Shown: positions 761 to 37,810 of the stretch, piece after piece
Layout: each line of letters starts with the position of its first letter
How positions within the stretch are numbered: position 1 is the stretch's first letter
Assembly: GCA_012837425.1 (NCBI GenBank)
Contig: DURE01000006.1
Span: forward strand, 11,462-75,461
Source of the DNA: Clostridiales bacterium
Lineage (GTDB): Bacteria > Bacillota > Clostridia > Oscillospirales > CAG-272
Length of the DNA stretch: 64,000 bases
Direction of reading: 5' to 3'
Notes under the pieces: model-generated
Told to the model about the DNA's origin: nothing
Databases searched by the model: none
What the model saw: only the letters and a program-made list of their open reading frames with translations
Position numbers and translations under genes: made by a program

Positions 761-3214
761 GTGTCGAACAGATTTACGCAGAAAGCACAGAATTCTCTAA
801 ACCGGGCGATGCAGAGCGCCAAGGAACTGGGGCACACATATATCGGGTCTGAACATTTGCTCCTCGGACTTGCCGGGGAGAGCGACAGCATTGCCGCAAA
901 GCTTCTTGCCGGGCGGGGAGTCACGCCCGCAAAGCTCAGGCAGACCATAGCCGACTGGGCAGGCACCGGCATTCCGACCTTGCTCTCCCCCTCGGACATG
1001 ACGCCAAAGGTCAAAAACATCATAGAAACCTCGGCTCAGGAATCGATAAAAAACGGACAAAGCTATATCGGAACCGAACACCTTCTGGCAGCCCTGCTGG
1101 CTGAGAGCGACTGTATGGCAATAAGGATTCTCTCGGCCTGCGGGGTATCTGTCGTCGAGCTGAAAAAGGAGCTTGGCAACTTCCTTAACACAATCCCTGG
1201 GAAAAACACACTCAAAGAGCAGCGGGGCCGCGACAGCCTGCGGCACTCGGTGCCGGGCGCGCCTACCATATCAAACTACGGGCGAAATCTCACACAGCTT
1301 GCGCGGCTGGGCATGCTTGACCCGATTATCGGACGCGAGCGCGAGACCCTGCGCGTCATTCAGATTCTCTCAAGGCGCACAAAAAACAATCCCTGCCTCA
1401 TCGGGGAGCCGGGCGTGGGCAAAACCGCGGTGGTCGAGGGACTGGCGCAGAAAATCGCCGACGGCCGAGTCCCTGAAAATCTAAGGGATAAGGTGATTGT
1501 CACGCTTGACATTCCGGCCATGATTGCCGGCGCCAAATACCGCGGCGAGTTTGAGGAGCGGATGAAAAACGTGATGGAGGAGGTTCGGAAAAACGACTTT
1601 ATCATTCTCTTTATCGACGAAATCCATACAATAATCGGCGCCGGCGCCGCCGAGGGCGCGGTTGATGCCGCAAATATCATTAAGCCGGCGCTAGCCCGGA
1701 GCGAGCTGCAGGTTATCGGGGCCACCACTCTTGCCGAATACCGAAAACATATTGAAAAGGACGCCGCGCTTGAGCGCAGATTTCAACCGGTAATGGTGGG
1801 CGAGCCGACGGCCGAGGAGACAATCGCCATTCTGCGCGGGCTGCGCGACAAATACGAGGCCCACCACAAGCTCTCTATATCCGACGACGCCATTGAGGCG
1901 GCGGTCAGGCTGTCGCAGCGCTATATAACCGACCGATTCCTGCCGGATAAAGCGATAGATTTAATCGATGAGGCGGCCTCGGGCTGCCGGATAGCCGCCT
2001 TCTCGGCTCCGCCGGCGCTGTCTGTGGTCAAAGAGCGGCTGGCTTGTATTGTCAGCGAAAAGGAGGAGGCGATAATATCCCAGAATTTCGAGAAGGCCGC
2101 CGCCCTGCGCGACGAGGAACTCAGGCTCAGGCACCGGTTGGACGAAGAAGAAAAAAGCTGGGAGATTGAATCCATCGTAAATAACCCGACGGTCATCGCC
2201 GAGGACATCGAAAGAACGCTGACGCAGTGGACCGGCATACCCGTCTCGCACACCGACGAGGCCGAAAACCTGCGTATACTGGATCTCGACAAAAGGCTTG
2301 GGGAGCGGATAATCGGTCAGGACAAAGCTATTGCCAAAATAGCCGTCGCTATAAGGCGGGGCAGGAGCGGACTGAAGGACCCGCGGCGTCCGGCCGGTTC
2401 CTTTCTTTTCTGCGGCAGGACCGGCGTGGGAAAAACAGAGCTGGCGCGCTCGGTTTCCGAAGAAGTGTTCGGAAAGGATAACTTCATCCGCTTTGATATG
2501 TCCGAATACATGGAAAAGCACAGTATCTCAAAGCTTATCGGCTCGCCGCCGGGATATGTCGGCTACGACGAGGGCGGAAGGCTGACCGAGAGCGTGCGCC
2601 GGCGGCCCTATTCGGTCGTGCTGTTTGACGAAATCGAAAAGGCGCACCCCGATATTTTCAATATCCTCCTTCAAATTCTCGACAACGGCAGGCTGACCGA
2701 CTCGCAGGGGCGGACCTCTGATTTCAGGAATACCATACTAATATTGACCTCAAATATCGGCTTCTCCGCCGCCGAAAAAGCCAACCGGCTCGGTTTCGGA
2801 AACTCACAGACAACAGCGCGGGATGACGAGGAAGAAAGGCAGGTAATGCGGGCAGTCAGCGGGGTCTTCAGGCCCGAATTCCTCAACCGTCTCGATGAAA
2901 TAATTGTATTCAAGCCGCTTACAAATGACGACATAAAGCATATAACCCTGCTGACCCTGCGAGAGGTGGCGGACAGAGCAAAGTCACTCGGCATAAATCT
3001 TGATTTTTCAGACCCGGCAATAGATTTGGTTTCAAAGAAGGGGTATAGCCGGGAGAACGGAGCAAGGAATCTGCGGCGCACGGTGGTGGTCATGGTCGAA
3101 GATAAACTTTCCTCAATGATTCTTGAAGGCAAAATTAAGCCCGGTGACAGCGTGACGGTCACCGCCGGAGAGGAGGCCGGAATAGTCGTCCTGGTAAACC
3201 AAAAACAGGCTTGA
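761..3214 (+). CDS. clpC: ATP-dependent Clp protease ATP-binding subunit ClpC
   Basis: Two Clp_N repeats (GTEHLL/GSEHLL), Walker A motifs GEPGVGKT and [22 protein letters not shown]-like coil, LGF loop; GTG start at 761 after GGAGG. Confidence 0.95.
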
Positions 3215-3240
3215 CGCAAAACGCGCAGGCCTGTTTTTTG
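3201..3240 (+). terminator. Intrinsic terminator after clpC
   Basis: aaaacaggc...gcctgtttttt hairpin followed by a T-run. Confidence 0.7.
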
Positions 3241-3242
3241 TG

Positions 3243-3300
3243 CAGGGGCTCCGTCCCGCACCCCCGCTTAAGGATTGCGCGAAGGGTGCTGCCCCCCGCA
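3243..3300 (-). repeat. REP-like intergenic repeat, module A (locus 1)
   Basis: Reverse complement ttaagcgggggtgcgggacggagcccctg matches copies at 7492, 50643, 54407 and 61999. Confidence 0.7.
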
Positions 3301-3368
3301 GGACCGGGCGGGGGCGACAAATCAAGAGCCGCCGGGGCGGTCTGCAAACCTCTCCGGCGGCGATATGC

Positions 3369-3980
3369 TTACCCTCCGGTTATGGCCTTCAAATCAAGCA
3401 GCGATTTTATGTAATGCTCCGCCTTGCAGTCCGGGTAATACCCACCGGGGTCAAAAAGACATCCGGCAATCCCCGCGGCCTGTGCCGCTTCAATATCTAT
3501 GTCGCGGTCTCCTATCATCAGCGCGCGGCGACGGTCTATCCCGCAGGTCTTAACAAGAAAATTCAGCGCATCGGGTGCCGGCTTGCGCGGGAATTTGTAT
3601 GTGGTGCTCTCAAGCACAAAGTCAAAGCAGTCATGTATTCCCATCTTCTCAAGTAGTTTGTAGACAATACTGCCGCTGTGGGTGTATAGGTAGTTCTTCT
3701 TCCCGAGCGCTATGGCAAACCTCAGAATTTCGGGGGCCTCGGGGAAAGCCTGCTGTTCGGCCAGGGCTAATTCTTTCCATATGCTGTGGTATTCCGTGTT
3801 ACAGTCGCTCAGACCGTAGTACCTGAGTGCATGTCCCACCGAGACCTTGAGCTTGCTGTATGTAGTGCTGTAATCAGCCTCCCTGCCCCGCCTGCCCAGC
3901 AGCTCAAGCAGTGCTTTGGTGAAAACCGGATATGTGTCCGATATTGTTCCGTCGAAGTCGTAGATAAGATAATCGTACAT
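3369..3980 (-). CDS. HAD-family hydrolase/phosphatase
   Basis: DFDGT motif I, KP motif III, GDRDID motif IV. Confidence 0.9.
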   Translation of the reverse strand: MYDYLIYDFDGTISDTYPVFTKALLELLGRRGREADYSTTYSKLKVSVGHALRYYGLSDCNTEYHSIWKELALAEQQAFPEAPEILRFAIALGKKNYLYTHSGSIVYKLLEKMGIHDCFDFVLESTTYKFPRKPAPDALNFLVKTCGIDRRRALMIGDRDIDIEAAQAAGIAGCLFDPGGYYPDCKAEHYIKSLLDLKAITGG

Positions 3981-3988
3981 TGTTTAGG

Positions 3989-4579
3989 TTATTTCCTTTT
4001 GTTCTGCTTTTTCATCCTTTTGATTTCTTCCTGCTCGGGGTTGTCCGGTGCAAGGACCCGGGCAAGACCAATATTCTTAGTTCCAAAAATGTAGCTAATT
4101 GTCGAGACCAGCAGCGCCGGCAGGATAATCAGAAAATAAGACCACCAGGCGTCGTTGAGCGGCAGTCCGACAAGCTCGCCGTCTACAATCTCGGTGCCGA
4201 TATCTATGGTCATAATGCCGGCATACATACCCTGCAGCAATATGGCAATCGAGCCGAAGGGCTTTATGGCAGTAGCAAGAATTGCCAGAATAAAGTTCGG
4301 CGTGTTGGCAAGCAGCGACATATAAAGCCCGGTGAGCGGCCTTGACTGCATTCTGCCATGCTCAATTCTAATCCCGTCTCTTGCACCTACCTCCCAGGTC
4401 ATGTAGTAGATGAGGAAAAGGTAAAACAAGACCGCGAAAACGCTTGAGACTACCTGCCAGGTATAGTTCTCGGCCATGCCGAAGGCAAGCGCCAGCACAA
4501 GCCCCAGCAGCGCGATACCGAACTGGTTGAGAAACATTTTCAGAGAGTAGTAGGAGTATTCCTTGAAAAAATTCTTCAT
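3989..4579 (-). CDS. Integral membrane protein of unknown function
   Basis: Several hydrophobic segments, basic C-terminus, ends 8 bp before the HAD gene. Confidence 0.75.
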   Translation of the reverse strand: MKNFFKEYSYYSLKMFLNQFGIALLGLVLALAFGMAENYTWQVVSSVFAVLFYLFLIYYMTWEVGARDGIRIEHGRMQSRPLTGLYMSLLANTPNFILAILATAIKPFGSIAILLQGMYAGIMTIDIGTEIVDGELVGLPLNDAWWSYFLIILPALLVSTISYIFGTKNIGLARVLAPDNPEQEEIKRMKKQNKRK

Positions 4580-4747
4580 ATCCTCACCCTGCCGCCAAAA
4601 GATGATTAAACCAACATTCTGCTTCCCATTATACCCGATTTTTCGGATTTTTGCAATAGCGGCACGGCGAAAAGTTTACATTTCGGTAATCAAATCAGCG
4701 CCTGTATGTTATATAATGATTATACAAAATATACGGGAGGGCACGGC

Positions 4748-5779
4748 ATGGAGAATATTTACGCCGGCAAAACCAAAAAAGAGCTGTCGGATATTCTGCT
4801 TGAATTTTCTTCATACAAAACAGTCATTCAGGGCTGCTCGACCAAAACAGTCGATGAATATCTGCTCGACCTTGCCACCTTCGCGCGGTTTATACTGGCA
4901 AAGCGGGCGGGCATTTCCCCCGAATCCGAGGAGTTTGCCGAAATCGACATTTCCTCGGCCGACGCGGAATTCTTCAAATCTGTAAAGACGCCCGAAATAT
5001 ACGAATTTTTGCTTTATGCCGGGACCGTCAGAAAAAACATGTGGGCGGCAAAAGCCCGCAAGCTCTCGGCAATAAAGGCGCTTTACAAGTTCATGACCAC
5101 CAAGAAAAACATGCAGTTTGAAAATCCGGCAATCAATATCGAATCTCCAAAACCCAAGAAAACATTGCCGAAGTTCCTAACCCTTGACGAGTCGATCTCT
5201 TTGCTTCAAGCGATACAAAATGACAAGAAATCCAAAACAAGGCTGCGCGACTTTGCGATTGTGACATTGTTTCTCAACTGCGGAATGCGGCTCTCCGAGC
5301 TTGTGGGTATCAACTTAAGCGATCTGGACCGCGAGCTGCGCTCGCTGCGGGTGGTCGGCAAGGGCGGCAAGGAGCGGATTGTTTACCTGAATACCGCCTG
5401 CAAAGAGGCGCTCCTTGAGTATCTTAAATGGCGCCTCGGCGTGGACCACGCAAGGCTTGCAACCAAGGCGCTGTTTCTGAGCAACCGCAACCAGCGGATA
5501 AGCGTCAAGACCGTGCAGTGGATGGTCTACAAATACCTTGCTGCCGCCGGGCTCGGCTCCAGGCGCTATTCGGTACATAAGCTGCGCCACACCGCCGCCA
5601 CGCTGATGTACCAGTCGGGCGAGGTCGACCTGCGCGTGCTCAAGGACATTTTAGGCCATGAACAGCTCAACACCACGCAGATATACACACATGTCAGCAA
5701 CGCCGCCATATCCGAGGCAATGGAGAAAAATCCGCTGGCAAATATCAGCTTTGCGCGTCAGGAAAAGCAAAAAGACTGA
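4748..5779 (+). CDS. Tyrosine recombinase, XerC-like
   Basis: Catalytic residues R (GMRLSEL), K (GKGGKER), HKLRH, LGH and Y (TTQIYTHV); GGGAGG RBS before ATG 4748. Confidence 0.92.
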   Translation: MENIYAGKTKKELSDILLEFSSYKTVIQGCSTKTVDEYLLDLATFARFILAKRAGISPESEEFAEIDISSADAEFFKSVKTPEIYEFLLYAGTVRKNMWAAKARKLSAIKALYKFMTTKKNMQFENPAINIESPKPKKTLPKFLTLDESISLLQAIQNDKKSKTRLRDFAIVTLFLNCGMRLSELVGINLSDLDRELRSLRVVGKGGKERIVYLNTACKEALLEYLKWRLGVDHARLATKALFLSNRNQRISVKTVQWMVYKYLAAAGLGSRRYSVHKLRHTAATLMYQSGEVDLRVLKDILGHEQLNTTQIYTHVSNAAISEAMEKNPLANISFARQEKQKD

Positions 5780-5868
5780 TATTTACGCCTGTATCTTCAT
5801 TTTTCTTGTTTTTTATGATATAATTTATCCGGACAGCATAATTACAAACCGAACGAAAGGAGGCCGCC

Positions 5869-7491
5869 ATGCGGCCGCAAAACATGGATTTAACAAATTT
5901 CAGTCTGCTCTACCCCGATGTGGAAACTCAAAGGGCTCACCTCAGCGAAACCGGAATTCCCGATATAAGTATGTATGTGCTCGACGAGTTCGGGCTGCTT
6001 GAGGTCTTCGACCTGAAAAATACAAGGCTCTCGGATTACTTTACAAGCGACCCCGCCGTCATGAGGTATCGGATGGATGCCTTTGACGACATGCTGAAAA
6101 ACCCGCTCATAGCCAGGACCCTAAATCGCCTGGTCCCGATACTGAGCGACATATTCGAGCTGCGCCGGCTTGAGGAGGACAGCGGCGGCGAGGAGGCTAT
6201 CTCATATCTATCGAGTCTGACCGAGATAGAGCTGTATATTTCAAGCGTTGAGACGCTTCACTCGGGATTTGCGCAGGTGCGCAAAAACCTTAGGAGCCGC
6301 GCTTTCACAACCCTTGCCGACCGGATTATCGAGCTTGCCGAGAGCGATTATTACATGGAGCTCAACGAAAAGCTAAGCGCGCTCACCGCCCGGGTAAGGG
6401 ATATTAAGAGTGTCACAATCGGGGTTAATCTCGACGCGCAGCTCCGACCGGCCGAGGCCGGCGTTCTCTCGATTAATCCCGAGCCCTTCCGTTCGGGCGA
6501 TGTGCTCGAGAAGATACTGCGGCTCAATTTCAAGGACGACGAGTATACATGTATTGCAAACATTGTTCCCTTCGGGAAAAAACAGACCGAAAATCAGAAG
6601 ATGGCCCTGAAACTTGCCTTTAATTCGGCTATCAACGAGGTTTATAAGTCCTCGCTTCGGTCCTGGAAGAAGATTGTTCACGAATATGTGCTCTCAAACA
6701 CCGACTTTTTGCTTAACCTCATGCCCGAAATCGAGTTTTTCGTCAAGGGCGCTGCGTTTATGCAGCGGCTGCTTGAGCGGGACTGCAGTCTTTGCAGGCC
6801 CGAAATAGCCCCGGCTGGCGAGCGCGTCTTTGTGGCCAAGGGATTGTATAATCCCTGTGTTGCGCTTAAAATTGAGGACGAAATTGTCTCAAACGACGCG
6901 GAGTTCGACGACACCTCGCGGATATTTATCCTGACCGGGCCAAACCGGGGAGGAAAGTCGGTTCATACCTGCGCTGTGGGGCTGGCGCAGGCTATGATGC
7001 AGCTTGGCATGTTTGTCCCGGCCGAGAGCGCCAGAATCAGCCCGGCCGACGCCGTTTTTACCCATTTCACCACCGGCGCCGACGACACTATCGACAAAGG
7101 GCGGCTGGGCGAGGAGTGCTCCCGCCTACGAGATATATTCGACAAGGTGACGCCGCTGAGCCTGGTGCTGCTCGACGAGTCCTTCTCCTCGACCGGCGCA
7201 TACGAGGCGGCCTATATCGCCGCCGAGGTGCTCGCCGCCTTCAGCCGGGTGCAGTGCAGGTGCCTCTTCTCAACCCACCTGCATGAGCTTGCCGCCCGCA
7301 TCGACGAAATAAACGCCCGCGCCCGGGCCGACGGCGGGAGCTTTATCGACACGCTCGTGGCCGGAATCGAGGGCGAGGGCAGGCGCTCATTTAAAATATA
7401 CCGCGCCAAGCCCGACGGCAAGAGCTATGCCCGCGATATAGCCGAAAAATACGGCCTGACCTACGAGGAGATTATTAAACGTTTTGTATAA
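5869..7491 (+). CDS. MutS-related ATPase containing domain V but no mismatch-recognition or Smr domain
   Basis: LTGPNRGGKS Walker A, LVLLDES Walker B, STHLHEL, SYA helix-turn-helix; AAAGGAGG RBS. Confidence 0.85.
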   Translation: MRPQNMDLTNFSLLYPDVETQRAHLSETGIPDISMYVLDEFGLLEVFDLKNTRLSDYFTSDPAVMRYRMDAFDDMLKNPLIARTLNRLVPILSDIFELRRLEEDSGGEEAISYLSSLTEIELYISSVETLHSGFAQVRKNLRSRAFTTLADRIIELAESDYYMELNEKLSALTARVRDIKSVTIGVNLDAQLRPAEAGVLSINPEPFRSGDVLEKILRLNFKDDEYTCIANIVPFGKKQTENQKMALKLAFNSAINEVYKSSLRSWKKIVHEYVLSNTDFLLNLMPEIEFFVKGAAFMQRLLERDCSLCRPEIAPAGERVFVAKGLYNPCVALKIEDEIVSNDAEFDDTSRIFILTGPNRGGKSVHTCAVGLAQAMMQLGMFVPAESARISPADAVFTHFTTGADDTIDKGRLGEECSRLRDIFDKVTPLSLVLLDESFSSTGAYEAAYIAAEVLAAFSRVQCRCLFSTHLHELAARIDEINARARADGGSFIDTLVAGIEGEGRRSFKIYRAKPDGKSYARDIAEKYGLTYEEIIKRFV

Positions 7492-22963: not shown

Positions 22964-23935
22964 ATGACTGAACTGTATCCGCTCAAACTCCGCGGCATCC
23001 CGGTAAATATGCTCTGGGGAGGCAGCCGGCTGCGCGACAGATTCAGAAAGCCGGGTGCCACCTGCAAGACCGGCGAGACCTGGGAGCTCTCGGTCCGCCC
23101 GGATAGGGTGAACATAATCGAGAACGGCGCATATACGGGGCTTACCCTCGAGGATTTTTTCAGTAAGGCCGGGAATAAGGTTGTCTCGGAGGATTATGAG
23201 GGCGGCAGGTTTCCGCTTTTAATAAAATTTATTGACGCTGCCGACGACCTCTCAATCCAGGTGCACCCCGACAATGAGTACGCCGCCCATGTCGAATGTG
23301 ATTTTGGCAAAACCGAGATGTGGTATATCATTGACGCCAAACCCGGCGCCGGGATAATCTACGGTCTTGGCGAGGGCTGCGCTAAAGAGGACCTTAAAAG
23401 AGCGCTTGAAGCGGGGGTACCGGGAGAGGCTCTGAACTTTGTTAAAGTCAAGCCCGGCGACAGCTTTTTCATACCGGCTGGGCTTGTCCACGCCATAGGT
23501 CGCGGGGTATTCATCGCCGAAATCCAGCAGAACTGCGACCTTACATACCGTGTTTACGACTACGGGCGGCTTGGCCTCGGCGGCAAGCCCCGTGAGCTGC
23601 ATACAAAAAAAGCCTTTGACGTCATTTATCCATATACCCACGAGGAAATCGAGCGCATGCGTTTTTCGGCCTCAGTCCCCGGGAAGCGTGACCGGTCTGT
23701 CCTTTCACACTGCGAATACTTCAAGACCTTAAAGCTTGACATCAGCCGGCCGGTTGACCTTTTCTCGGGAAGCGAAAGCTTTCATTCGCTGCTCTGTATA
23801 TCGGGCGGCGGCACAATCGAGTGCGGCGGCGGGGCTTACTATATCAGCGCAGGAGATAGCTGGTTTGTTCCGGCCGGCACCGGGCACTACCGGCTCTCGG
23901 GCAGGTTCTGTGTTTTGCTTACCACGCTGAAATAA
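22964..23935 (+). CDS. manA: Mannose-6-phosphate isomerase, class I
   Basis: WGG..L, FPLLIKFIDA, LSIQVHP, GKTEMW, HAIG, EIQQN..TYRVYD; GAGGAG RBS. Confidence 0.9.
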   Translation: MTELYPLKLRGIPVNMLWGGSRLRDRFRKPGATCKTGETWELSVRPDRVNIIENGAYTGLTLEDFFSKAGNKVVSEDYEGGRFPLLIKFIDAADDLSIQVHPDNEYAAHVECDFGKTEMWYIIDAKPGAGIIYGLGEGCAKEDLKRALEAGVPGEALNFVKVKPGDSFFIPAGLVHAIGRGVFIAEIQQNCDLTYRVYDYGRLGLGGKPRELHTKKAFDVIYPYTHEEIERMRFSASVPGKRDRSVLSHCEYFKTLKLDISRPVDLFSGSESFHSLLCISGGGTIECGGGAYYISAGDSWFVPAGTGHYRLSGRFCVLLTTLK

Positions 23936-23985: not shown

Positions 23986-25833
23986 TTATTTTATTTGTGT
24001 ATTTTCGGTCACGCTGTAATTTGTCCCGTAGTAGGGCAGCTTGAACACCCAGGTAGAAAAGCCGGCGACATATAGCGTGCGCATTCCCTTCTTATCAAGG
24101 TTTACCTCGCTGTATTCTATTTTGACTATTTCGCCCGAGGACATTAAGGTATCCGAGCCGTCGGGGCGGAAATATTCGTTTCTCTTGTTCGCGCTGAGGT
24201 TTTCTTTTGTGACATAATTCGACCTGACGCCAAAATAGCCGTTGAGCCCGACCGGCCAGAGGGCGTATTCGGCCCTCACTGTGGCATAAAACTCGGTGCT
24301 GCCCCCGTCCCAGCCGTGATGCGCGACTGTGACGAAATCCGACTCTAAGTAATCCCCGTATATATCGAGGACAACCCGGCCCGCCTCCCCGGACATGTCA
24401 GCGGACATCAGCGCCGTTTGCCCGCTCAGCGTCACACGGGACACAATGCTTGAGGTGTTGAGGTTTGATATGGCTTTTGGCGAGTACAGCTCATGAGTAT
24501 AGAGGACCTCTATCTCCGCGTCGCGGATATATAGCCTCTGCCCTGGGTGAACCTGAACCCGCCGGGCGCCCGCGAAGGCCGCCATTGCCCGGTCGGTCTG
24601 CGGGCCGGGCTCGGTGTAATTGAACAAAAACCGCTCGACCTGCAGTGTCCTGTCGCCCGAGTAAAGCTCGGCAAAACGGCGCAGCGCCCCGAAATGGTCG
24701 CCGTGATAATGCGTGATAATCCAGCCCGAAATTCTGATATTATCGGGGTCGGGGGCGAATTCCTTCAGGAGCTCATAAATGCGCTGCGCATTTTGCCGAT
24801 AAACCTTCCTCGGCCCGACATTCACATAATCCTCGTAGTGCCCGCCGTCATAAATCAGAAAACTGCCGTCCGAGAGCCGGAACATATAGCACATCCCGTT
24901 TGTCACCGAGTCGTCATACGATACAACGCCGACCTGAAATAGCAGCGGCTGGCAGATATTCTCGGTTTCGGCTTTCTCAAAGAGTCCGGGCTCGATATTT
25001 GAGGCCGGCTCGCGCAGGATTCTGAGCTCGTTGTTGTACCTGCTGTAAGCAAGACTTACTGAATAAGTGCTCCCGACCGCCGTGGCAAAAAGATTTCCGG
25101 CGGCCTCGGTATGCGCGAGCAGCTTATATCCCGACGAGGTGAAAACACCGGCACAGGCCCGGAATATCCCCTCGTTTGCCCCCTCTACAACCGTTAGCAC
25201 GCAGCCGTAGCCGCAGTCATAGGCATTCTCAAAGCCAAATATATTGTCGCCCCTGAAGTACCCGCAGAAGCGCGAGTCATACCAGACCGCGGTATATGTC
25301 TCGGAATAGCTGACTATTCCGTCCCTTATCGCAAAGGGTGAGAGCGTCATAACAACCGCGCCCTCGGCAGGAAGCCCTGACAGCTCGGTCACACAAAATT
25401 CATTGCCCCCGGCCGTCAAAGCGCTCAGCGTGCTCTCGCCGGTGCTGATTTCATAAACTGACTCTCCCCTGATTTTCTGCTCATCCAAAGGCCCGCCGGC
25501 GTCAAAGCGGGCTTTAATTCCGGCCGTGTCATATTCGTCGGTATTGTAAAGCGACACCGCCCGCAGCGCCATACTCCCGCCCTCTGATTTCTCCTGAAAT
25601 CCGAACAGGAAAAAATCCCGGTTTTCTTCCCCCGCCGGCCGGTCACCTTCAGAGATTAAGTGAATCTCCCCGAACACGGTGGGCTGGAGCGGTTGTGTGG
25701 TTTCGGTCTCGGTTGCGTGTGGTTCGGCCTCTGCCGGCCGGCAGCCCCCGCAGATTATTGCTGCGATTACAAGGAAAAAAACAAGGGCTTCCACGGACGG
25801 CGGCATATGTCTGCTTTTCTGTTCAGCTCGCAT
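23986..25833 (-). CDS. Exported/lipoprotein metallo-beta-lactamase-fold hydrolase (ComEC/Rec2-like MBL domain)
   Basis: Hydrophobic N-terminus with Cys, YDGG, THYHGDH, N.SS, SAD, VAHHG. Confidence 0.8.
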   Translation of the reverse strand: MRAEQKSRHMPPSVEALVFFLVIAAIICGGCRPAEAEPHATETETTQPLQPTVFGEIHLISEGDRPAGEENRDFFLFGFQEKSEGGSMALRAVSLYNTDEYDTAGIKARFDAGGPLDEQKIRGESVYEISTGESTLSALTAGGNEFCVTELSGLPAEGAVVMTLSPFAIRDGIVSYSETYTAVWYDSRFCGYFRGDNIFGFENAYDCGYGCVLTVVEGANEGIFRACAGVFTSSGYKLLAHTEAAGNLFATAVGSTYSVSLAYSRYNNELRILREPASNIEPGLFEKAETENICQPLLFQVGVVSYDDSVTNGMCYMFRLSDGSFLIYDGGHYEDYVNVGPRKVYRQNAQRIYELLKEFAPDPDNIRISGWIITHYHGDHFGALRRFAELYSGDRTLQVERFLFNYTEPGPQTDRAMAAFAGARRVQVHPGQRLYIRDAEIEVLYTHELYSPKAISNLNTSSIVSRVTLSGQTALMSADMSGEAGRVVLDIYGDYLESDFVTVAHHGWDGGSTEFYATVRAEYALWPVGLNGYFGVRSNYVTKENLSANKRNEYFRPDGSDTLMSSGEIVKIEYSEVNLDKKGMRTLYVAGFSTWVFKLPYYGTNYSVTENTQIK

Positions 25834-25909: not shown

Positions 25910-27655
25910 TCAGCTCCTGCGTTTCTTTGCGACACCGGCAGTGCCGGCAAGAGCAAAGAGAATGAAGGCGGGGGCGACAGCCGACTTGCAGCCCGAGGAT
26001 TCGGGCTTCTCGGTCTCGGGTGCTTTGGTTGTCCCGGCCCCCTCGCCGGTCCCGGTCGCGTCGCCGGTTGATTTGTAGGTCACCTTTATTGTCCTGTCAA
26101 TCTCATATTTCCCCTCAATCACCGGGAAATTAGGCTCATATCCCTCAATCACGGGAGACTCGATACTGAACTCGGTGCCAAAGGGCTTAGTGTCGACATA
26201 AGGGTCGGCCGCCTTGCTTCCGTCCTCAAATACATACTCGATGGTCAGTTTGTACTCCCTGATAGAATATGTAACCGTTATCTCAACCGGTGCGTTGCCC
26301 ATTTTGCCGGACACGGTTTCCTGATCGGTGGTATAGCCGGTAATGGCCGGAGAATCAATGCTGTATTCCTCTCCTTCGAGCAGGTCGGCTTTATAGTCTT
26401 CAGCCGCCTTATCTCCGTTTGAGTAAACGTAGTGAATGGTCAGCGGAATTGTAGTTGCGAAAAATGCCTCCTCAATTGCGGCTGCGGCGCTTTCCATCGC
26501 CGCATATTCGGCGTCTGTCTTGGCCACAATTTTGTTGTCCTTGAGCTCAAATCCGCTTATCGCACCCGAGCCGCCAATCTCAAGGGTGCCCGAGGGCACC
26601 GAATAGCAGTTTTCAATTGTTCCGATAACCTGAAGGAGCCCGCCGATAAGCCCGGTCTGGGTTGTGTCGTTATCCTTGCCGGTAATTGAGCCGAAGTTGT
26701 AGCAGTTTGAAATTATCGAACCGGCACTGCTGTGGAATTTGCCGATAATGCCGCCGACGCCGGTGTTATCGTTGAGATAATCGGCAAAGCTGATCTCACC
26801 GTAGTTGACACAATTGACAATTTCGGCCGTTTTTACGAAAGCCGATATGCCCGCAGCTCCGGCATGATTGGGCGTCGCGGTCTTGGCGAGCGCGACCACG
26901 TTTCCGTAATTGATGCAGTTCTTAACCACGCTGGAGTCGGCAAGGCCGACGATGCCGCCGATGATGACGTTGTTGGTAGGTTTGGCAGAGGTGCCGTCAA
27001 GTGCGCCGTAGCCGTAAATGGTGCCCTCGTTGATGCAGGAGTCAATGGTGCCTTCCTTCTCGACGCGGCCGGCAATCATGCCGCTTGAGCTGGTATAGCA
27101 CTCGACGACCGAGGTTGCGTCAACCGTGCAGCGGGCCACCGTGCCGCCGCCGATATAGCCGGCAATAACTGCCGAGTAGCAGGCGTCTTTGGTAACTATG
27201 CTGGCGCCCACGAAGTTGATTCCCTTAGCCGTGCCGCCGATGATTCCGAAAAATCCGAAGCGGATGCCGTCGGGCTCTCTGGAGGCCATATCGATGGTCA
27301 AATTCTTTATGTAATGTCCTTGTCCGTCAAAAGTCCCCATAAACCCGGTGGTTCCGGAAGCTCCGGTGGTGGTTCCTATCGGTACCCAGTTTTTGCCGCC
27401 GAGGTCGATGTCGGCGCCCAGCAATATTGTCTTGCCCGAAAAATCGTCGGGTGCAATGCTTGACAGAGCACCGTTGACTATCGCGGCAAGCCCGGCCAGT
27501 TGTTCGGGGGTTGTTAAGGTAAAGGTGGTGTCGGTGGTGTTATACCACGAGGTGTCGATGGTTGTTCCATCCCATGCCGCAGAGGTGCCAACGGTAAAGA
27601 CTGCAAGCAGAACTACCGTTGTGAACGTAAGAAGCAATGCTGAAATTCGTTTCAT
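25910..27655 (-). CDS. Cell-surface protein with GLUG-like repeat region, two MucBP-like domains and a GCxS C-terminal anchor
   Basis: Signal peptide; ADIDL..W.PIG..F.GTFDGQGH.I.NL; GGIVG/NC.NYG repeats; twice LTI.YV...G.KAA..Y..SP.I.GY; tail SSGCKS-hydrophobic-KKRRS. Confidence 0.85.
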   Translation of the reverse strand: MKRISALLLTFTTVVLLAVFTVGTSAAWDGTTIDTSWYNTTDTTFTLTTPEQLAGLAAIVNGALSSIAPDDFSGKTILLGADIDLGGKNWVPIGTTTGASGTTGFMGTFDGQGHYIKNLTIDMASREPDGIRFGFFGIIGGTAKGINFVGASIVTKDACYSAVIAGYIGGGTVARCTVDATSVVECYTSSSGMIAGRVEKEGTIDSCINEGTIYGYGALDGTSAKPTNNVIIGGIVGLADSSVVKNCINYGNVVALAKTATPNHAGAAGISAFVKTAEIVNCVNYGEISFADYLNDNTGVGGIIGKFHSSAGSIISNCYNFGSITGKDNDTTQTGLIGGLLQVIGTIENCYSVPSGTLEIGGSGAISGFELKDNKIVAKTDAEYAAMESAAAAIEEAFFATTIPLTIHYVYSNGDKAAEDYKADLLEGEEYSIDSPAITGYTTDQETVSGKMGNAPVEITVTYSIREYKLTIEYVFEDGSKAADPYVDTKPFGTEFSIESPVIEGYEPNFPVIEGKYEIDRTIKVTYKSTGDATGTGEGAGTTKAPETEKPESSGCKSAVAPAFILFALAGTAGVAKKRRS

Positions 27656-27716: not shown

Positions 27717-29201
27717 TCAGCTCCCAAAATCATTTCTAAACTTTTGGAGCATCGTTTCTATCGCTTTTGACTGGGCTTTGTATGCCGTGGCGAAGTTACC
27801 GTTGTTATTTGTTATGCAGCTGCGCCAAATTGTCAGAGTCACGTTGTTGAATGCGGCGTAGGCATATATCCGGCCGACGTCAAAGTTGACTGAGGCGCGT
27901 AGAATGTCAAGCATTTTTCCGGTTTCCTCGTCCGAGGCATATTTGTGCTTTAGAGTGATGTTGAATACCTCGGGCGTGACAAGCCGATGACCGGCTGAGG
28001 CCAGGCATTCGAGCAGGTATGCGCAGTGTTCCTGCTTCTGGGTCCCTGTCGAAATCGAATACAGGGTGTGCGGGTATGAAACACCGGTCACATAATCTTC
28101 CTGATACTCGTCATATTTCGGAGCCGGAACAATTCCATAGAAGTCAACTTCATTAAAGCTGAGGAAGGCAGCATTGAGAGAGGCAAACTCAAACAGGCAG
28201 CGGCCGTCAGCGAAGATTTTGGTACCCACTTCGGTGTAAACATCCCCGCTCTTGTAGAACCAGTCAATAATTTTAGCCAGGAGGTTTGAGGTTTTTTCGC
28301 TGTTCCAGGAGTCGGATATAACCGGTAGGTCGTCACTGTCCTTCTCCATTGTCACAAGCCCCGCGCCGTAAAAGGCGGTGTCAAGTGCGTTTGTTTTTGA
28401 GGAAATGGTAAACCCGTAGATGTCGCTGTCATCGTTTGTGCCATTCCCGTTTAAGTCGTTATAGACGTCCTTCGACATGGAAATCAGCTTGTCTATCGTC
28501 CACTTTCCGGATAATACAAGCTCGTAGGGCGACTCGAGATTCAGCTCCTGCAGCATATTTTTATTGAAGTATGTACACTGGAGCATCGCGATAAGGTTTG
28601 TCGATATGTCGCCGGTAACAAAACAAAGCTTGCCGCCGATTGTCGCTTCGCTCACCATCTCCTCGGGCCACCACGGGAGGTCGAATGCAAAAATATTGTC
28701 GTACTCCATCAAATTAACAGTATAGCCCTGGACCGACAGTAAAGCGTTTGCCTGACTGTAGCCGGCAACAATGTCATAGTCACAGGTGCCGGAGTTTACA
28801 TCGGTCACAACCTTCTGAGTCCACTGAATATAATATGAGCCATCACCGAGCTCACCATAAAAATCCAACTGGTTGTTCAGACGTTCGGTCACAATAAGGT
28901 TGCGGGTGAAAATTGCGTCGTTGATGTTCTCTCCGTTCTGTCCTTCAGAAAAAAACTCCTGAATATGCCGGTCGGACCAGTAAAATATTTTAATGGTCTC
29001 GCCTTTAAAGTCAAGCCTCTCGGGCAGCCGGTCGAGTCTGTAGCCGTCTTTGTCATACAGCGAGTCGGAATCTTCCGGAGTTGTGGCGTCGCCGCTCTGG
29101 ACAGTCGTCGTGGTTAAGTTCTCGTCTTCCCCGCCGACGCAGGAAATCAGGGCGGTTGTCATCAGCAGCGCAAGGAACAGCGCAATAATTCTTCTTAACA
29201 T
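27717..29201 (-). CDS. Extracellular solute-binding lipoprotein (carbohydrate ABC-type family)
   Basis: Lipobox LISC; YFNK, G.WT.D, FADG..LF, YGIVPAPKYDE; AAAGGAG RBS. Confidence 0.85.
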   Translation of the reverse strand: MLRRIIALFLALLMTTALISCVGGEDENLTTTTVQSGDATTPEDSDSLYDKDGYRLDRLPERLDFKGETIKIFYWSDRHIQEFFSEGQNGENINDAIFTRNLIVTERLNNQLDFYGELGDGSYYIQWTQKVVTDVNSGTCDYDIVAGYSQANALLSVQGYTVNLMEYDNIFAFDLPWWPEEMVSEATIGGKLCFVTGDISTNLIAMLQCTYFNKNMLQELNLESPYELVLSGKWTIDKLISMSKDVYNDLNGNGTNDDSDIYGFTISSKTNALDTAFYGAGLVTMEKDSDDLPVISDSWNSEKTSNLLAKIIDWFYKSGDVYTEVGTKIFADGRCLFEFASLNAAFLSFNEVDFYGIVPAPKYDEYQEDYVTGVSYPHTLYSISTGTQKQEHCAYLLECLASAGHRLVTPEVFNITLKHKYASDEETGKMLDILRASVNFDVGRIYAYAAFNNVTLTIWRSCITNNNGNFATAYKAQSKAIETMLQKFRNDFGS

Positions 29202-36850: not shown

Positions 36851-37810
36851 CTATCTTTTCTTTTTGCGGACGCCACAGGCTGCGAATGCAAGCAGAGCGA
36901 CAACTCCGGTACTCCCGGCCATCAGAGAGCCGCAGCCCTTTTTCTCGGGTGCCTTGGTGGTTTCGGGGGCTTTGGTGGTTTCCCCGCCGGGGCCGGCTGT
37001 CGTGGTTTCTTGAGGTGTTGTGTCGGCCTTGCTGGTTTCGGGGGGCTTGGTGGTTCCGGGGGCTTCTGTAGTGGTCTCGGGAGGCGCCGTGGTGTCGGAC
37101 AGCTTCTCGCCCGAAACCGTCATCCCTTTATAAATCATGATATCGCTTACAATAGCGTTCTGGGTGTAGTAGGAGTAAAAATAAATTCCGAGATTGTCGT
37201 TAGCAAAAATGAGAATTTCGCCGGGGTATGACTCGTCGACAAGCTGATATTCGCCTTTTCTGTCCATGATGAAAAGCCTGAGTGTTAAATCCCGGCCGTT
37301 TACCTCAACGGCATAGTGCTGGGGAGTGCCGTCATTGTCGATGCCGGGTATGTCAAACCCCATAGTCTCGTACTTTATGTACCCGTGCGCACCGAGCGAT
37401 GAGGCTCCGTTCATTATCCGGTACTGCTCGGCATACCCGTAAACGCCGTATATACCGTCTACATACAGGCCGAAGCAGGCCTTTTCATTGCGCGTGACGG
37501 TAAACTTGATGGTGTAGGCATTGTTTTCGCCGAGTGGGAAGCCTTCAACCTCCCCACCAAGCCAGTTTTGGGCAGAGTTGTTTCCGCCACAAATATTGGC
37601 GGTTTTTTCATCGATTACGGTCATCTGAAGGTCGCCCATAATTTTCACAGGCTGCCAGAACTGGTCGGTGTTCATATTTACGGTATAAAGCAGGTCTCCG
37701 TCGGCGGCAGGCGTGTAGAAATCAAGCGTGGTGGCCGAGACCGATACCGCAAAGGTCGACATAACAGCAATAAGGCATAGTGCCGAAATGCTCAAAACTG
37801 CTTTCTTCAT
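36851..37810 (-). CDS. Secreted protein of unknown function with Thr/Pro linker and GCxS C-terminal anchor
   Basis: Signal peptide, beta-rich domain, TT(K/A)(A/P)PE repeats, tail KKGCGS-hydrophobic-RKKKR. Confidence 0.85.
   Translation of the reverse strand: MKKAVLSISALCLIAVMSTFAVSVSATTLDFYTPAADGDLLYTVNMNTDQFWQPVKIMGDLQMTVIDEKTANICGGNNSAQNWLGGEVEGFPLGENNAYTIKFTVTRNEKACFGLYVDGIYGVYGYAEQYRIMNGASSLGAHGYIKYETMGFDIPGIDNDGTPQHYAVEVNGRDLTLRLFIMDRKGEYQLVDESYPGEILIFANDNLGIYFYSYYTQNAIVSDIMIYKGMTVSGEKLSDTTAPPETTTEAPGTTKPPETSKADTTPQETTTAGPGGETTKAPETTKAPEKKGCGSLMAGSTGVVALLAFAACGVRKKKR

Follow-up and report, generated by a model that had tools for sequence, protein, structure and literature searches.

A candidate cysteine-bearing C-terminal sorting signal in a gut-type Clostridia genome

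Two otherwise unrelated secreted proteins of a gut-type Clostridia genome end in the same Gly-Cys tail, one of about 15 such tails in that genome, and these tails co-occur with a dedicated CPBP/Rce1-like membrane protease that is usually encoded next to a divergent Lgt paralog. This points to an undescribed way of anchoring surface proteins, although cleavage, lipidation, and surface display were not measured and all of the evidence comes from comparative genomics.

Two secreted proteins share a cysteine-bearing C-terminal tail

The two proteins lie within a 64,000-nucleotide stretch of DNA from a Clostridiales bacterium (GenBank assembly GCA_012837425.1, contig DURE01000006.1, positions 11,462 to 75,461), which we refer to as the window; the genome itself is Oscillospiraceae-like and is called G000 here. 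A preliminary description of the window had reported that both proteins carry an N-terminal signal peptide and end in a GCxS motif, a transmembrane segment, and a basic cluster, with the Cys 26 and 27 residues from the C terminus and without LPxTG. We found that this observation holds. ORF A encodes 581 amino acids and ends in TTKAPETEKPESSGCKSAVAPAFILFALAGTAGVAKKRRS, and ORF B encodes 319 amino acids and ends in TTKAPETTKAPEKKGCGSLMAGSTGVVALLAFAACGVRKKKR. Both therefore end in [GS]-C-[KG]-S, followed by a hydrophobic helix and a K/R cluster. The features are as follows.

25910..27655 (-), gene A, a 581-aa secreted MucBP/GLUG-type surface protein carrying the Cys tail
27578..27655 (-), putative Sec signal peptide of A (residues 1 to 26, MKRISALLLTFTTVVLLAVFTVGTSA...)
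26267..26446 (-), best-scoring MucBP stretch of A (residues 404 to 463)
25913..26038 (-), tail A (last 42 aa): end of a T/P/E-rich linker, S-G-C-K-S, an 18-residue hydrophobic segment, and KKRRS
25988..25990 (-), invariant Cys codon of tail A (residue 556, 26th from the C terminus)
36851..37810 (-), gene B, a 319-aa secreted protein with no Pfam domain, carrying the Cys tail
37733..37810 (-), putative Sec signal peptide of B (residues 1 to 26, MKKAVLSISALCLIAVMSTFAVSVSA...)
36854..36979 (-), tail B (last 42 aa): TTKAPE repeats, K-G-C-G-S, a hydrophobic segment, and RKKKR
36932..36934 (-), invariant Cys codon of tail B (residue 293, 27th from the C terminus)

Protein A matches Pfam MucBP (46 bits) and Muc_B2 (38.9 bits), while its Glug match (12.9 bits) is below the cutoff. 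BLASTP of A against B aligned only the linker and tail (E = 0.006). Both N termini look like Sec signal peptides; these were read by eye from the translations, without a signal-peptide predictor. Neither protein matches an LPxTG-like pattern, apart from a PPETS inside the linker of B.

To determine whether the shared tail was more than a chance resemblance, we searched with a profile of the tails. This found 15 copies in G000 at E ≤ 2.6e-8 (tail A, E = 2.6e-16; tail B, E = 9.3e-17) and none at E ≤ 1e-4 in 297 of the 299 other scored genomes of a sample of the class. The match is more than chance. A homology search with the last 52 residues of A found only the protein itself among 80 candidates. 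Signal peptides were judged by eye to be present in 10 of the 15 G000 proteins; 4 of the remainder are cut by contig ends or were not examined, and 1 is ambiguous. The proteins that carry the tails are diverse and include MucBP, CBM9, LTD, GLUG, and Laminin_G_3 with Metallophos domains, whereas 5 of the 10 that were scanned, as well as protein B, have no Pfam family. Cys and Ser(+2) are invariant in the 14 G000 tails that were aligned. In 40 aligned tails from three GTDB families (f1, f21, and f72), the Cys is invariant, and Gly(-1) and Ser(+2) are each at least 90% conserved. The motif is better written as [GS]-C-x-[SGA], with only the Cys invariant, than as the GCxS of the preliminary description.

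Co-occurrence of the tails with a CPBP-family protease and an Lgt paralog

The preliminary description noted that no processing enzyme was evident in the window. We found candidates outside it. On contig C17 of G000, a tail protein is followed by a divergent Lgt paralog, which we call LGT2 (C17:18429-19226), and by a CPBP/Rce1-like glutamic intramembrane protease, which we call CPBP17 (C17:19226-20032), the start of which overlaps the LGT2 stop. To assess whether the protease tracks the tails, we searched 121 genomes of the family. The tail profile (E ≤ 1e-4) hit 24 genomes, and CPBP17 hits were bimodal, with 25 genomes at E ≤ 1.1e-38 and the rest at E ≥ 1.2e-12. Of the 121 genomes, 23 had both tails and CPBP17, 1 had tails only, 2 had CPBP17 only, and 95 had neither. 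The two CPBP17-only genomes each have a Cys tail at a looser threshold. The tails-only genome, G020 (97% complete, 8% contamination), has 3 good tails and a GCC-type Lgt but no CPBP17 at E ≤ 1e-10. In an independent class-wide sample of 300 scored genomes, tails occurred only in G265 (12 tails) and G342 (1 tail), and these are exactly the two genomes with strong CPBP17 matches (329 and 213 bits). Weak CPBP17-like hits in two further genomes, G378 (102 bits) and G699 (118 bits), came with no tails; in a 350-genome sample of the phylum, CPBP17 was sought but the tails were not. The 25 positive family genomes are kin and may descend from few events, so independent support amounts to about three families. 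No species tree was built to count independent gains within the family.

CPBP17 matches PF02517 at 60 bits (cutoff, 22.4), and the motifs EExxFRG, FGxxHxxN, and HAxx[ND] are kept in 15 of 15 orthologs. Although a sequence-profile search of the PDB found nothing at E ≤ 0.01, the AF2 model of CPBP17 (pLDDT 89.2) hit MmRce1 (4cad) and SpdC (6u0o) first: the top five Foldseek PDB rows are 4cad chains and 6u0o_A (TM 0.45 to 0.58; E = 2.5e-3 to 1.7e-2), with the next hits at a TM of about 0.2. The five other CPBP genes of G000 were not profiled individually.

LGT2 lies directly upstream of CPBP17 on the same strand in 24 of 25 family genomes; in the 25th, contig ends intervene. The gene ends usually overlap. 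RNA evidence was not examined. In 22 of 22 fetched loci only this pair is conserved, while the flanking genes change: MscS, MprF-C/GNAT, ROK kinase, and cysteine desulfurase genes are present in only 1, 1, 3, and 5 of the 22 loci, respectively, and are not part of the system. A tail-bearing gene lies within about 800 bp of the pair in 14 of 22 loci and is homologous to that of G000 in only 3. The paired LGT2 proteins form one clade with 100/99 support. One natural LGT-CPBP fusion was found (P0063; 557 aa), in which PF01790 and PF02517 are joined by a K/E-rich linker, in a cluster of 5 members. This was the only fusion cluster among 106 hits, and its genomic context was not recovered, as a search of genome contigs gave one unrelated Lgt hit of 26% identity and a search of metagenome contigs gave none. 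A search for longer forms of CPBP17 scored none of 7433 candidates at E ≤ 1e-10, which is weak evidence. An apparent fusion in genome G004 (locus L044, 561-aa frame) was rejected because the frame reads through a run of N (34 X) and is therefore an assembly gap. Complex prediction for LGT2 with CPBP17 gave a score of 0.00 in two runs, with the controls not folded; this was not used as evidence either way.

LGT2 matches PF01790 at 97.8 bits (cutoff, 24.9), and its profile hits E. coli Lgt (5azb) at E = 2.1e-15. It fails, however, to reach the equivalog cutoff of TIGR00544 (71.1 versus 118.9 bits), and in 18 of 18 orthologs it has GRxGCxxxGCCxG in place of the canonical GRxGNFxNxExxG. In alignment with E. 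coli Lgt, the equivalents of Y26, R143, G154, Y235, R239, E243, and R246 are kept, while those of H103, N146, and E151, residues of importance in Lgt, are Y/F, C, and C. LGT2 could be inactive or use different chemistry. G000 also keeps a canonical Lgt with GRWGNFINGEAYG, which the LGT2 profile did not hit at E ≤ 1e-3; this shows only how far LGT2 has diverged. In G265 (17 tails at E ≤ 0.01) and G342, CPBP17 is not next to any Lgt gene, and their GCC-type Lgt homologues lie elsewhere and fall outside the paired-LGT2 clade, so LGT2 is not a universal part of the system. In addition, a sister clade of solo GCC-type Lgt homologues occurs in the tail-less genomes G016, G023, G082, G087, and G113, indicating that the GCC motif alone does not imply tail lipidation.

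Comparison with known sorting systems

We next compared the tails and CPBP17 with described systems. No NCBIfam or Pfam sorting-domain model covers the tails. The nearest is Synerg-CTERM (TIGR04564; cutoff, 22.5 bits), which shares a Gly/Ser-rich signature ending in a single invariant Cys directly before the transmembrane helix, a basic cluster, and a predicted CPBP-family protease (bioRxiv 10.1101/2023.06.07.544157). The window tails A and B gave no hit to it, and only 4 of 14 (E ≤ 10) and 7 of 40 (E ≤ 1) tails hit it at all. One tail scanned alone reached 22.6 bits, but the same protein at full length scored 17.8 bits. Here two polar residues ([KG]-S) follow the Cys, the lineage is Clostridia and not Synergistales, and a dedicated Lgt paralog is attached. 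Profiling for Synerg-CTERM in that paper pulls out a T2SS, which a monoderm cell should lack; monoderm status was not examined here. Among the 6 CPBP proteins of G000, the best score against the cognate protease MrtS (NF040589; cutoff, 130 bits) was 39 bits, and CPBP17 had no MrtS hit at E ≤ 0.01.

MYXO-CTERM has a tripartite tail with an invariant Cys, and its CPBP protease, myxosortase MrtX, has been shown experimentally to cleave; the working model is lipidation of the Cys followed by cleavage distal to it (PMC11980579). It belongs to a diderm host, depends on T2SS export to the outer membrane, and has the generic motif GCGC, and no dedicated gene for its lipidation has been reported. TIGR03382 hit only 2 of 40 tails (best E = 0.34), although weak tail matches to MYXO-CTERM-bearing families also occur. 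Against Mrt_core (NF040914; cutoff, 100 bits), the best G000 score was 24.9 bits, and CPBP17 scored 16.5 bits. In the JDVT-CTERM/MrtJ two-gene cassette, the sorting enzyme is encoded next to a target protein (PMC11980579), as a tail gene lies beside the pair in 14 of 22 loci here. That cassette, however, has a single target and occurs in Proteobacteria, whereas here there are up to 15 to 17 targets per genome plus an Lgt paralog; CPBP17 scored 22.7 bits against the MrtJ cutoff of 75. None of the G000 CPBP proteins passes any Mrt cutoff, and CPBP17 scores far below every curated myxosortase model.

For GlyGly-CTERM (TIGR03501), tail B scanned alone scored 15.8 bits against a cutoff of 15.5 (E = 0.018), but full-length B was not listed, 1 of 14 tails hit, and no rhomboid (PF01694) was found in the 96.7%-complete genome. 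Like LPXTG signals, the tails are C-terminal tripartite signals on Gram-positive surface proteins, including MucBP-type adhesins, but no LPXTG motif precedes the helix in A or B, and TIGR01167 (1 of 14 tails, E = 0.14) and PF00746 (3 of 40 tails, E ≥ 0.0044) gave only subthreshold hits. The single sortase of G000 more likely serves two proteins ending in P[AD]TGD, a transmembrane segment, and a basic cluster.

Two further pathways are related by logic. CAAX processing, in which a prenyltransferase is followed by Rce1, lipidates a C-terminal Cys before a CPBP protease cuts behind it, as is proposed here, but it is cytosolic, uses a prenyl lipid, and removes 3 residues; here the site is extracytoplasmic, the presumed lipid is diacylglycerol, and about 25 residues, including a transmembrane helix, would be removed. 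In the N-terminal lipoprotein pathway, Lgt acts on a Cys at the outer end of a single transmembrane segment preceded by small residues (lipobox [GAS]-C, compared with G-C here), and the intramembrane protease LspA then removes the helix. In the tails the topology is inverted, with the helix C-terminal to the Cys, and the protease is a CPBP. Systems that combine a Cys tail with a CPBP protease are already known from MYXO-, Synerg-, JDVT-, and CGP-CTERM (bioRxiv 10.1101/2023.06.07.544157), a point on which the preliminary description needs correction. Literature searches returned no paper describing an Lgt paralog coupled to a CPBP protease or a Cys-CTERM signal in Clostridia, although most subscription journals and supplements were not covered and the supplementary tables of the Haft preprint (bioRxiv 10.1101/2023.06.07.544157) might list further unpublished CTERM models.

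A proposed pathway and its alternatives

The preliminary description proposed a sortase-independent, possibly Cys-lipidating anchoring system without a named family, and our data support this interpretation. It had also set out what would count against the proposal, and these points were examined: the tail is not confined to two proteins (15 in G000, and tails in 24 of 121 family genomes), the Cys is conserved (40 of 40 tails), and no existing CTERM model scores strongly; whether the tail is removed from the mature protein was not measured.

Collectively, these data identify what we are highly confident is an undescribed family of tripartite sorting signals, each with a [GS]-C-x-[SGA] signature at the outer membrane face, one transmembrane helix, and a cytoplasmic K/R cluster, on about 15 unrelated Sec-exported surface proteins in this genome. 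In the pathway we propose, the protein would be exported by Sec and held by the tail helix with the Cys just outside the membrane; the thiol would be lipidated, in this lineage most likely by LGT2; and CPBP17, translationally coupled to LGT2, would cut behind the modified Cys and remove the helix and basic tail. This would leave the protein tethered to the cytoplasmic membrane of a monoderm cell by a C-terminal lipid, as the mirror image of the Lgt-then-LspA pathway and a bacterial analogue of CAAX processing. What the analysis itself demonstrates is the tails, their conservation, and their association with the two genes; every step of the pathway is inferred. The protease link is strong, and CPBP17 is likely the cognate enzyme. 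The Lgt link is moderate, because G265 and G342 lack the adjacency, and LGT2 is only somewhat more likely than not to be the lipidating enzyme. For the pathway as a whole, our confidence is moderate.

Of the alternatives, the least improbable, though still unlikely, is that CPBP17 processes the tails without prior lipidation, releasing the ectodomain or handing it to the wall or another acceptor, with LGT2 having another job and its adjacency reflecting shared envelope regulation. The lack of an adjacent Lgt in G265 and G342, the solo GCC-type homologues without tails, and the missing N146 and E151 equivalents in LGT2 are consistent with this view. However, a plain cleavage site would not need a Cys that is invariant exactly at the membrane boundary, the overlapping LGT2-CPBP17 pair is conserved amid shuffled flanks and fused in one case, and characterized CPBP relatives such as Rce1 act on lipid-modified Cys (PMC11980579; bioRxiv 10.1101/2023.06.07.544157). 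It is less likely that the tails are ordinary, unprocessed membrane anchors, with the Gly-Cys conserved for some other reason, such as a disulfide or helix capping, and the CPBP17 link due to shared ancestry. Most positive genomes do belong to one family, processing data are lacking, and other C-terminally anchored proteins without a Cys exist in G000. Yet tails and CPBP17 co-occur in three families, neither is found in 297 other class genomes, and tail genes of different protein families sit beside the pair in 14 of 22 loci, where we infer that a chance neighbor would be expected in under 1% of loci, given about 15 tail genes in a 1.85-Mb genome.

We consider it very unlikely that LGT2 and CPBP17 instead modify classical N-terminal lipoproteins. 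LGT2 is an Lgt homologue, and there is precedent in the S. aureus LnsA/LnsB system, in which a CPBP protein takes part in N-acylation (PMC7387801), but CPBP17 gave no hit to the LnsB model NF041768 at E ≤ 0.01, co-occurrence and adjacency are with the tails, and the canonical Lgt remains for ordinary lipoproteins. Least likely of all is that this is simply Synerg-CTERM/MrtS, or MYXO-CTERM/myxosortase, acquired by horizontal transfer. The borderline TIGR04564 hit and the weak tail matches to MYXO-CTERM-bearing families are in its favor, and the scores of the tails and of the G000 CPBP proteins against those models count against it, as does the finding that the nearest named relatives are Oscillospiraceae and Clostridia MAGs and not Synergistales.

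Cys-containing C-terminal sorting signals cut by CPBP proteases were described only recently, and the step that modifies the invariant Cys is explicitly unresolved, being attributed for MYXO-CTERM to "an unknown enzyme" with an "Lgt-like acyl-transferase" as the leading candidate (PMC11980579). It is possible, although slightly less likely than not, that LGT2 is the first identified dedicated reverse-topology Lgt, a transferase that puts a diacylglyceryl (or related) lipid on a Cys N-terminal to a C-terminal anchor helix and works as a module with an Rce1-like protease, to which it is fused in at least one lineage. That would name the missing lipidation enzyme class for the whole group of MYXO-, Synerg-, JDVT-, and CGP-CTERM signals and would reveal C-terminally lipidated surface proteins as a third anchoring mode in Gram-positive bacteria, beside sortase and N-terminal lipoproteins. 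The LGT2-CPBP17 pair is a two-gene cassette that can be tested directly. The system would also extend this kind of sorting to monoderm gut Clostridia, in which MucBP-, CBM-, and lectin-like surface proteins are usually assumed to be anchored by sortase, and about 15 proteins per genome in this lineage could be relabeled from "hypothetical" or "membrane protein" to sorted surface proteins.

The Cys tail and its conservation

To determine whether the two tails recorded in the preliminary description are genuine, we first examined the ORFs that carry them. Both ORFs exist as described there, each with a Cys close to the C terminus and no LPxTG, and their features are as follows.

25910-27655 (-): protein A, 581 aa, with MucBP and Muc_B2 domains, ending ...ESSGCKS, then AVAPAFILFALAGTAGVA, then KKRRS
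25988-25990 (-): Cys codon of protein A, 26 residues from the end
36851-37810 (-): protein B, 319 aa, with no Pfam domain, ending ...EKKGCGS, then LMAGSTGVVALLAFAACGV, then RKKKR
36932-36934 (-): Cys codon of protein B, 27 residues from the end
23986-25833 (-): gene flanking A, encoding a 615-aa metallo-beta-lactamase-fold protein with an N-terminal TM segment (Lactamase_B, 29 bits)
27717-29201 (-): gene flanking A, encoding a 494-aa protein with no Pfam match, whose N terminus reads by eye like a classical lipobox (...LISC)

Neither A nor B has an LPxTG-like motif before the helix, and BLASTP aligned the two proteins only in the linker and tail.

It had been stated in advance that the proposal of a sorting signal would fail if only these two proteins carried the tail or if the Cys were not conserved. 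We next searched the rest of the genome (referred to here as G000; 1.85 Mb, 67 contigs, 96.7% complete). A crude regular expression applied to its six-frame ORFs found the same tail on 14 proteins. A profile built from these 14 tails recovered all of them and a 15th on contig C34, all at E <= 2.6e-8, while the next matches were at E >= 0.11. In the underlying alignment, the Cys and the Ser two residues later are invariant. The proteins that carry the tail are heterogeneous and include MucBP, CBM9, lamin-tail domain, GLUG, and Laminin_G_3 with a metallophosphoesterase, as well as several proteins with no Pfam match. Where the N terminus is present, it looks like a Sec signal peptide, as judged by eye. 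One tail sits on a frame of only 102 aa with no start or signal peptide (G000:C3:1526-1834, +), which may be a broken or frameshifted gene or a gene-call problem. Two tail proteins at contig starts (G000:C19:1-939 and G000:C56:1-978) share an identical N-terminal stretch (MYHEAYYALWNEGKGMSMENFRSFWGIPEGVKVIAVDG...), and these are recent paralogs whose repeats probably broke the assembly. When 40 tails from more than 25 genomes of three GTDB families were aligned, the Cys was kept in 40 of 40, and Gly(-1) and Ser(+2) were each conserved in at least 90%. The signature is therefore [GS]-C-x-[SGA], which follows a T/P/E-rich linker and is followed by a helix and K/R residues.

A strong score to an existing CTERM model already reported in Clostridia had also been named as grounds for rejection. 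To assess this, we scanned NCBIfam release 20.0 and Pfam-A with whole proteins and with tails alone, and no sorting-domain model covered the family. The closest was Synerg-CTERM (TIGR04564), which hit 4 of 14 and 7 of 40 tails; one tail scanned alone scored 22.6 bits against a cutoff of 22.5, whereas the same protein at full length scored 17.8. Tail B alone scored 15.8 bits against the GlyGly-CTERM cutoff of 15.5, but the genome has no rhomboid. MYXO-CTERM (TIGR03382) hit 2 of 40 tails with a best E of 0.34, Rumino_NPXTG hit 10 of 40 with a best E of 0.019, and Pfam Gram_pos_anchor hit 3 of 40. Weak hits to full-length MYXO-CTERM protein families come from their tails. The preliminary interpretation of the tails as a sorting signal with no named family is supported by these results.

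A CPBP protein that co-occurs with the tails

We next sought candidate processing enzymes in the genome, which has one sortase, no rhomboid, and six CPBP/Rce1-like genes. None of the six reaches any curated Mrt* cutoff. The sortase is encoded at G000:C66:16414-16854 (-), and its substrates are probably marked by an LPXTG-like "PxTGD" signal, since two large proteins (a 770-aa frame ending at 60121 on G000:C30 and a 734-aa frame ending at 23211 on G000:C35) end ...EP[DA]TGDATIYV-TM-KRRS. This would leave sortase with few clients compared with 15 Cys-tail proteins. On contig C17, a tail protein is followed by two genes (coordinates are those of the extracted locus, L011).

1553-3019 (+): fusion of an MprF C-terminal-like domain (LPG_synthase_C, 123 bits) with a GNAT domain, directly upstream of the operon of tail gene, LGT2, and CPBP17
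3117-4250: tail protein
4430-5230: "LGT2," a 266-aa Lgt homologue scoring 97.8 bits on PF01790 and 71.1 bits on TIGR00544, below the latter model's cutoff of 118.9
5227-6036: "CPBP17," a 269-aa CPBP protein scoring 60 bits on PF02517, whose ATG overlaps the LGT2 stop

A canonical Lgt with the motif GRWGNFINGEAYG sits elsewhere, on contig C61, and scores 237 bits on PF01790.

To determine whether the tails and CPBP17 are found together, we searched the same 121-genome sample of the GTDB family three times. Tails at E <= 1e-4 occurred in 24 genomes. CPBP17 hits were bimodal, with 25 genomes at E <= 1.1e-38 and at least 37% identity and the next best at 1.2e-12. Both were present in 23 genomes, tails only in 1 (G020), CPBP17 only in 2 (G037 and G106), and neither in 95. 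G037 and G106 each have a Cys tail at a looser threshold, whereas G020 has three genuine tails and a GCC-type Lgt but no CPBP17.

Because these family genomes are kin, we sought independent lineages. In a class-wide sample (300 genomes scored, 1 not scored), the CPBP17 profile gave strong matches only in G265 (family f21, 329 bits) and G342 (family f72, 213 bits), plus a weak one in G378 at 102 bits. The tail profile hit exactly G265 (12 tails, or 17 at E <= 0.01) and G342 (1 tail, or 2 to 3 at looser thresholds) and no other genome of this sample. Those tails read GGCGSS..., EGCGSV..., and GGGCGSA.... In a phylum sample of 351 genomes, only one weak CPBP17-like hit appeared, in G699 at 118 bits; G699 and G378 have no tails. 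Against 1.84 billion representative proteins, the CPBP17 profile found 285 clusters at E <= 1e-30, indicating that the family is real but narrow. Some of its representatives have long extensions: P0146 (419 aa) carries an N-terminal P/T/Q-rich repeat region of about 160 residues, while P0011 (473 aa) and P0014 (426 aa) have C-terminal extensions with no Pfam match.

The motifs EExxFRG, FGxxHxxN, and HAxx[ND] are invariant in 15 of 15 CPBP17 orthologs, as are the family-specific NN and QxGYSxLxGxxC motifs. The AF2 model of CPBP17 has a mean pLDDT of 89.2 and a pTM of 0.87. Comparison of this model with structures in the PDB using Foldseek gave MmRce1 (4cad) chains and SpdC (6u0o_A) as the first five hits, with TM scores of 0.45 to 0.58 and E values from 2.5e-3 to 1.7e-2; Foldseek itself reports no match at E <= 0.001, and the next hits have TM scores of about 0.2.

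An Lgt paralog coupled to CPBP17

LGT2 orthologs lie directly upstream of CPBP17 on the same strand in 23 family genomes. In G100, the LGT2 copy is cut by a contig end, and in G102, the pair is split by contig ends. Among 22 loci retrieved for comparison, the pair is present in 22 of 22, usually with overlapping ends, while the flanking genes of G000 recur in only 1 to 5; the MprF-like/GNAT fusion is conserved next to the pair only in the same-genus genome (1 of 22 loci). A tail-bearing gene lies within about 800 bp of the pair in 14 of 22 loci and is homologous to that of G000 in only 3.

All 18 aligned LGT2s carry GRxGCxxxGCCxG. When aligned to E. coli Lgt (5azb, E 2.1e-15), LGT2 keeps the positions matching Y26, R143, G154, Y235, R239, E243, and R246 but replaces those matching H103, N146, and E151. 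A maximum-likelihood tree placed the 20 paired LGT2s in one clade with 100/99 support. Its sister is a "solo" GCC-type clade that also occurs in tail-less genomes, and the canonical Lgts are distant. The solo Lgt homologues (loci L092 to L098, from G100, G082, G083, G016, G023, G087, and G113, and representatives P0156 to P0251) carry GR[IV]GCFFAGCCYG, often with a C-terminal SHOCT domain (PF09851). They are widespread in Clostridia MAGs, are annotated simply as prolipoprotein diacylglyceryl transferase, and occur with and without Cys tails; we have no function to assign to them relative to the canonical Lgt.

One representative, P0063 (557 aa), is a genuine fusion, with a GCC-type LGT domain at residues 5 to 239, a K/E-rich linker of about 50 residues, and a CPBP17-type domain at residues 286 to 539. 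It sits in a cluster of five 557-aa members from separate assemblies and was the only fusion among 106 relatives. An apparent second case in G004 (locus L044, G004:C90:3036-4718) is explained by a run of N between LGT2 and CPBP17, which makes the two genes read as one 561-aa frame and which automated pipelines could miscall as a fusion.

In G265 and G342, however, CPBP17 is not next to an Lgt gene, and the GCC-type homologues of these genomes fall outside the paired clade. In G265, the stop of the CPBP17 ortholog instead abuts the start of an Exo_endo_phos family gene (L068:3101-3790, +, on G265:C35; 72 bits, with a weaker hit to the PGAP2IP C-terminal nuclease-like domain), which could be a different accessory enzyme in that lineage. 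The core of the system is therefore the tails plus CPBP17, and LGT2 is a lineage-specific, tightly coupled partner. The tails, their conservation, their co-occurrence with CPBP17, and the gene linkage were observed directly in sequence comparisons, whereas any cleavage or lipidation is inferred; no experiment exists. The role of LGT2 elsewhere may be filled by a solo GCC-type or canonical Lgt, or lipidation may not occur at all.

Relation to described Cys-containing sorting signals

Four Cys-containing tripartite signals, each with a cognate CPBP protease, have been defined by Haft (bioRxiv 10.1101/2023.06.07.544157), in a preprint where the terms Firmicutes, Clostridia, and Bacillota occur 0 times. 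Cleavage of MYXO-CTERM by MrtX has since been shown in a 2025 mBio paper (PMC11980579), whose working model is lipidation of the Cys followed by cleavage distal to it; the lipidating enzyme is described there as unknown, with an Lgt-like acyl-transferase as the leading candidate. Literature searches found no description of an Lgt paralog and CPBP protease paired in this way, or of this tail. The present locus supplies what the model in the latter study lacks, namely, an Lgt paralog genetically welded to the protease.

Collectively, these data show that the tail is real, is not an artifact, and is not covered by existing models. The system is of the Cys-CTERM/CPBP type already described, but it is a new variant, which sits in monoderm Clostridia and carries a dedicated Lgt paralog as a new, testable component.
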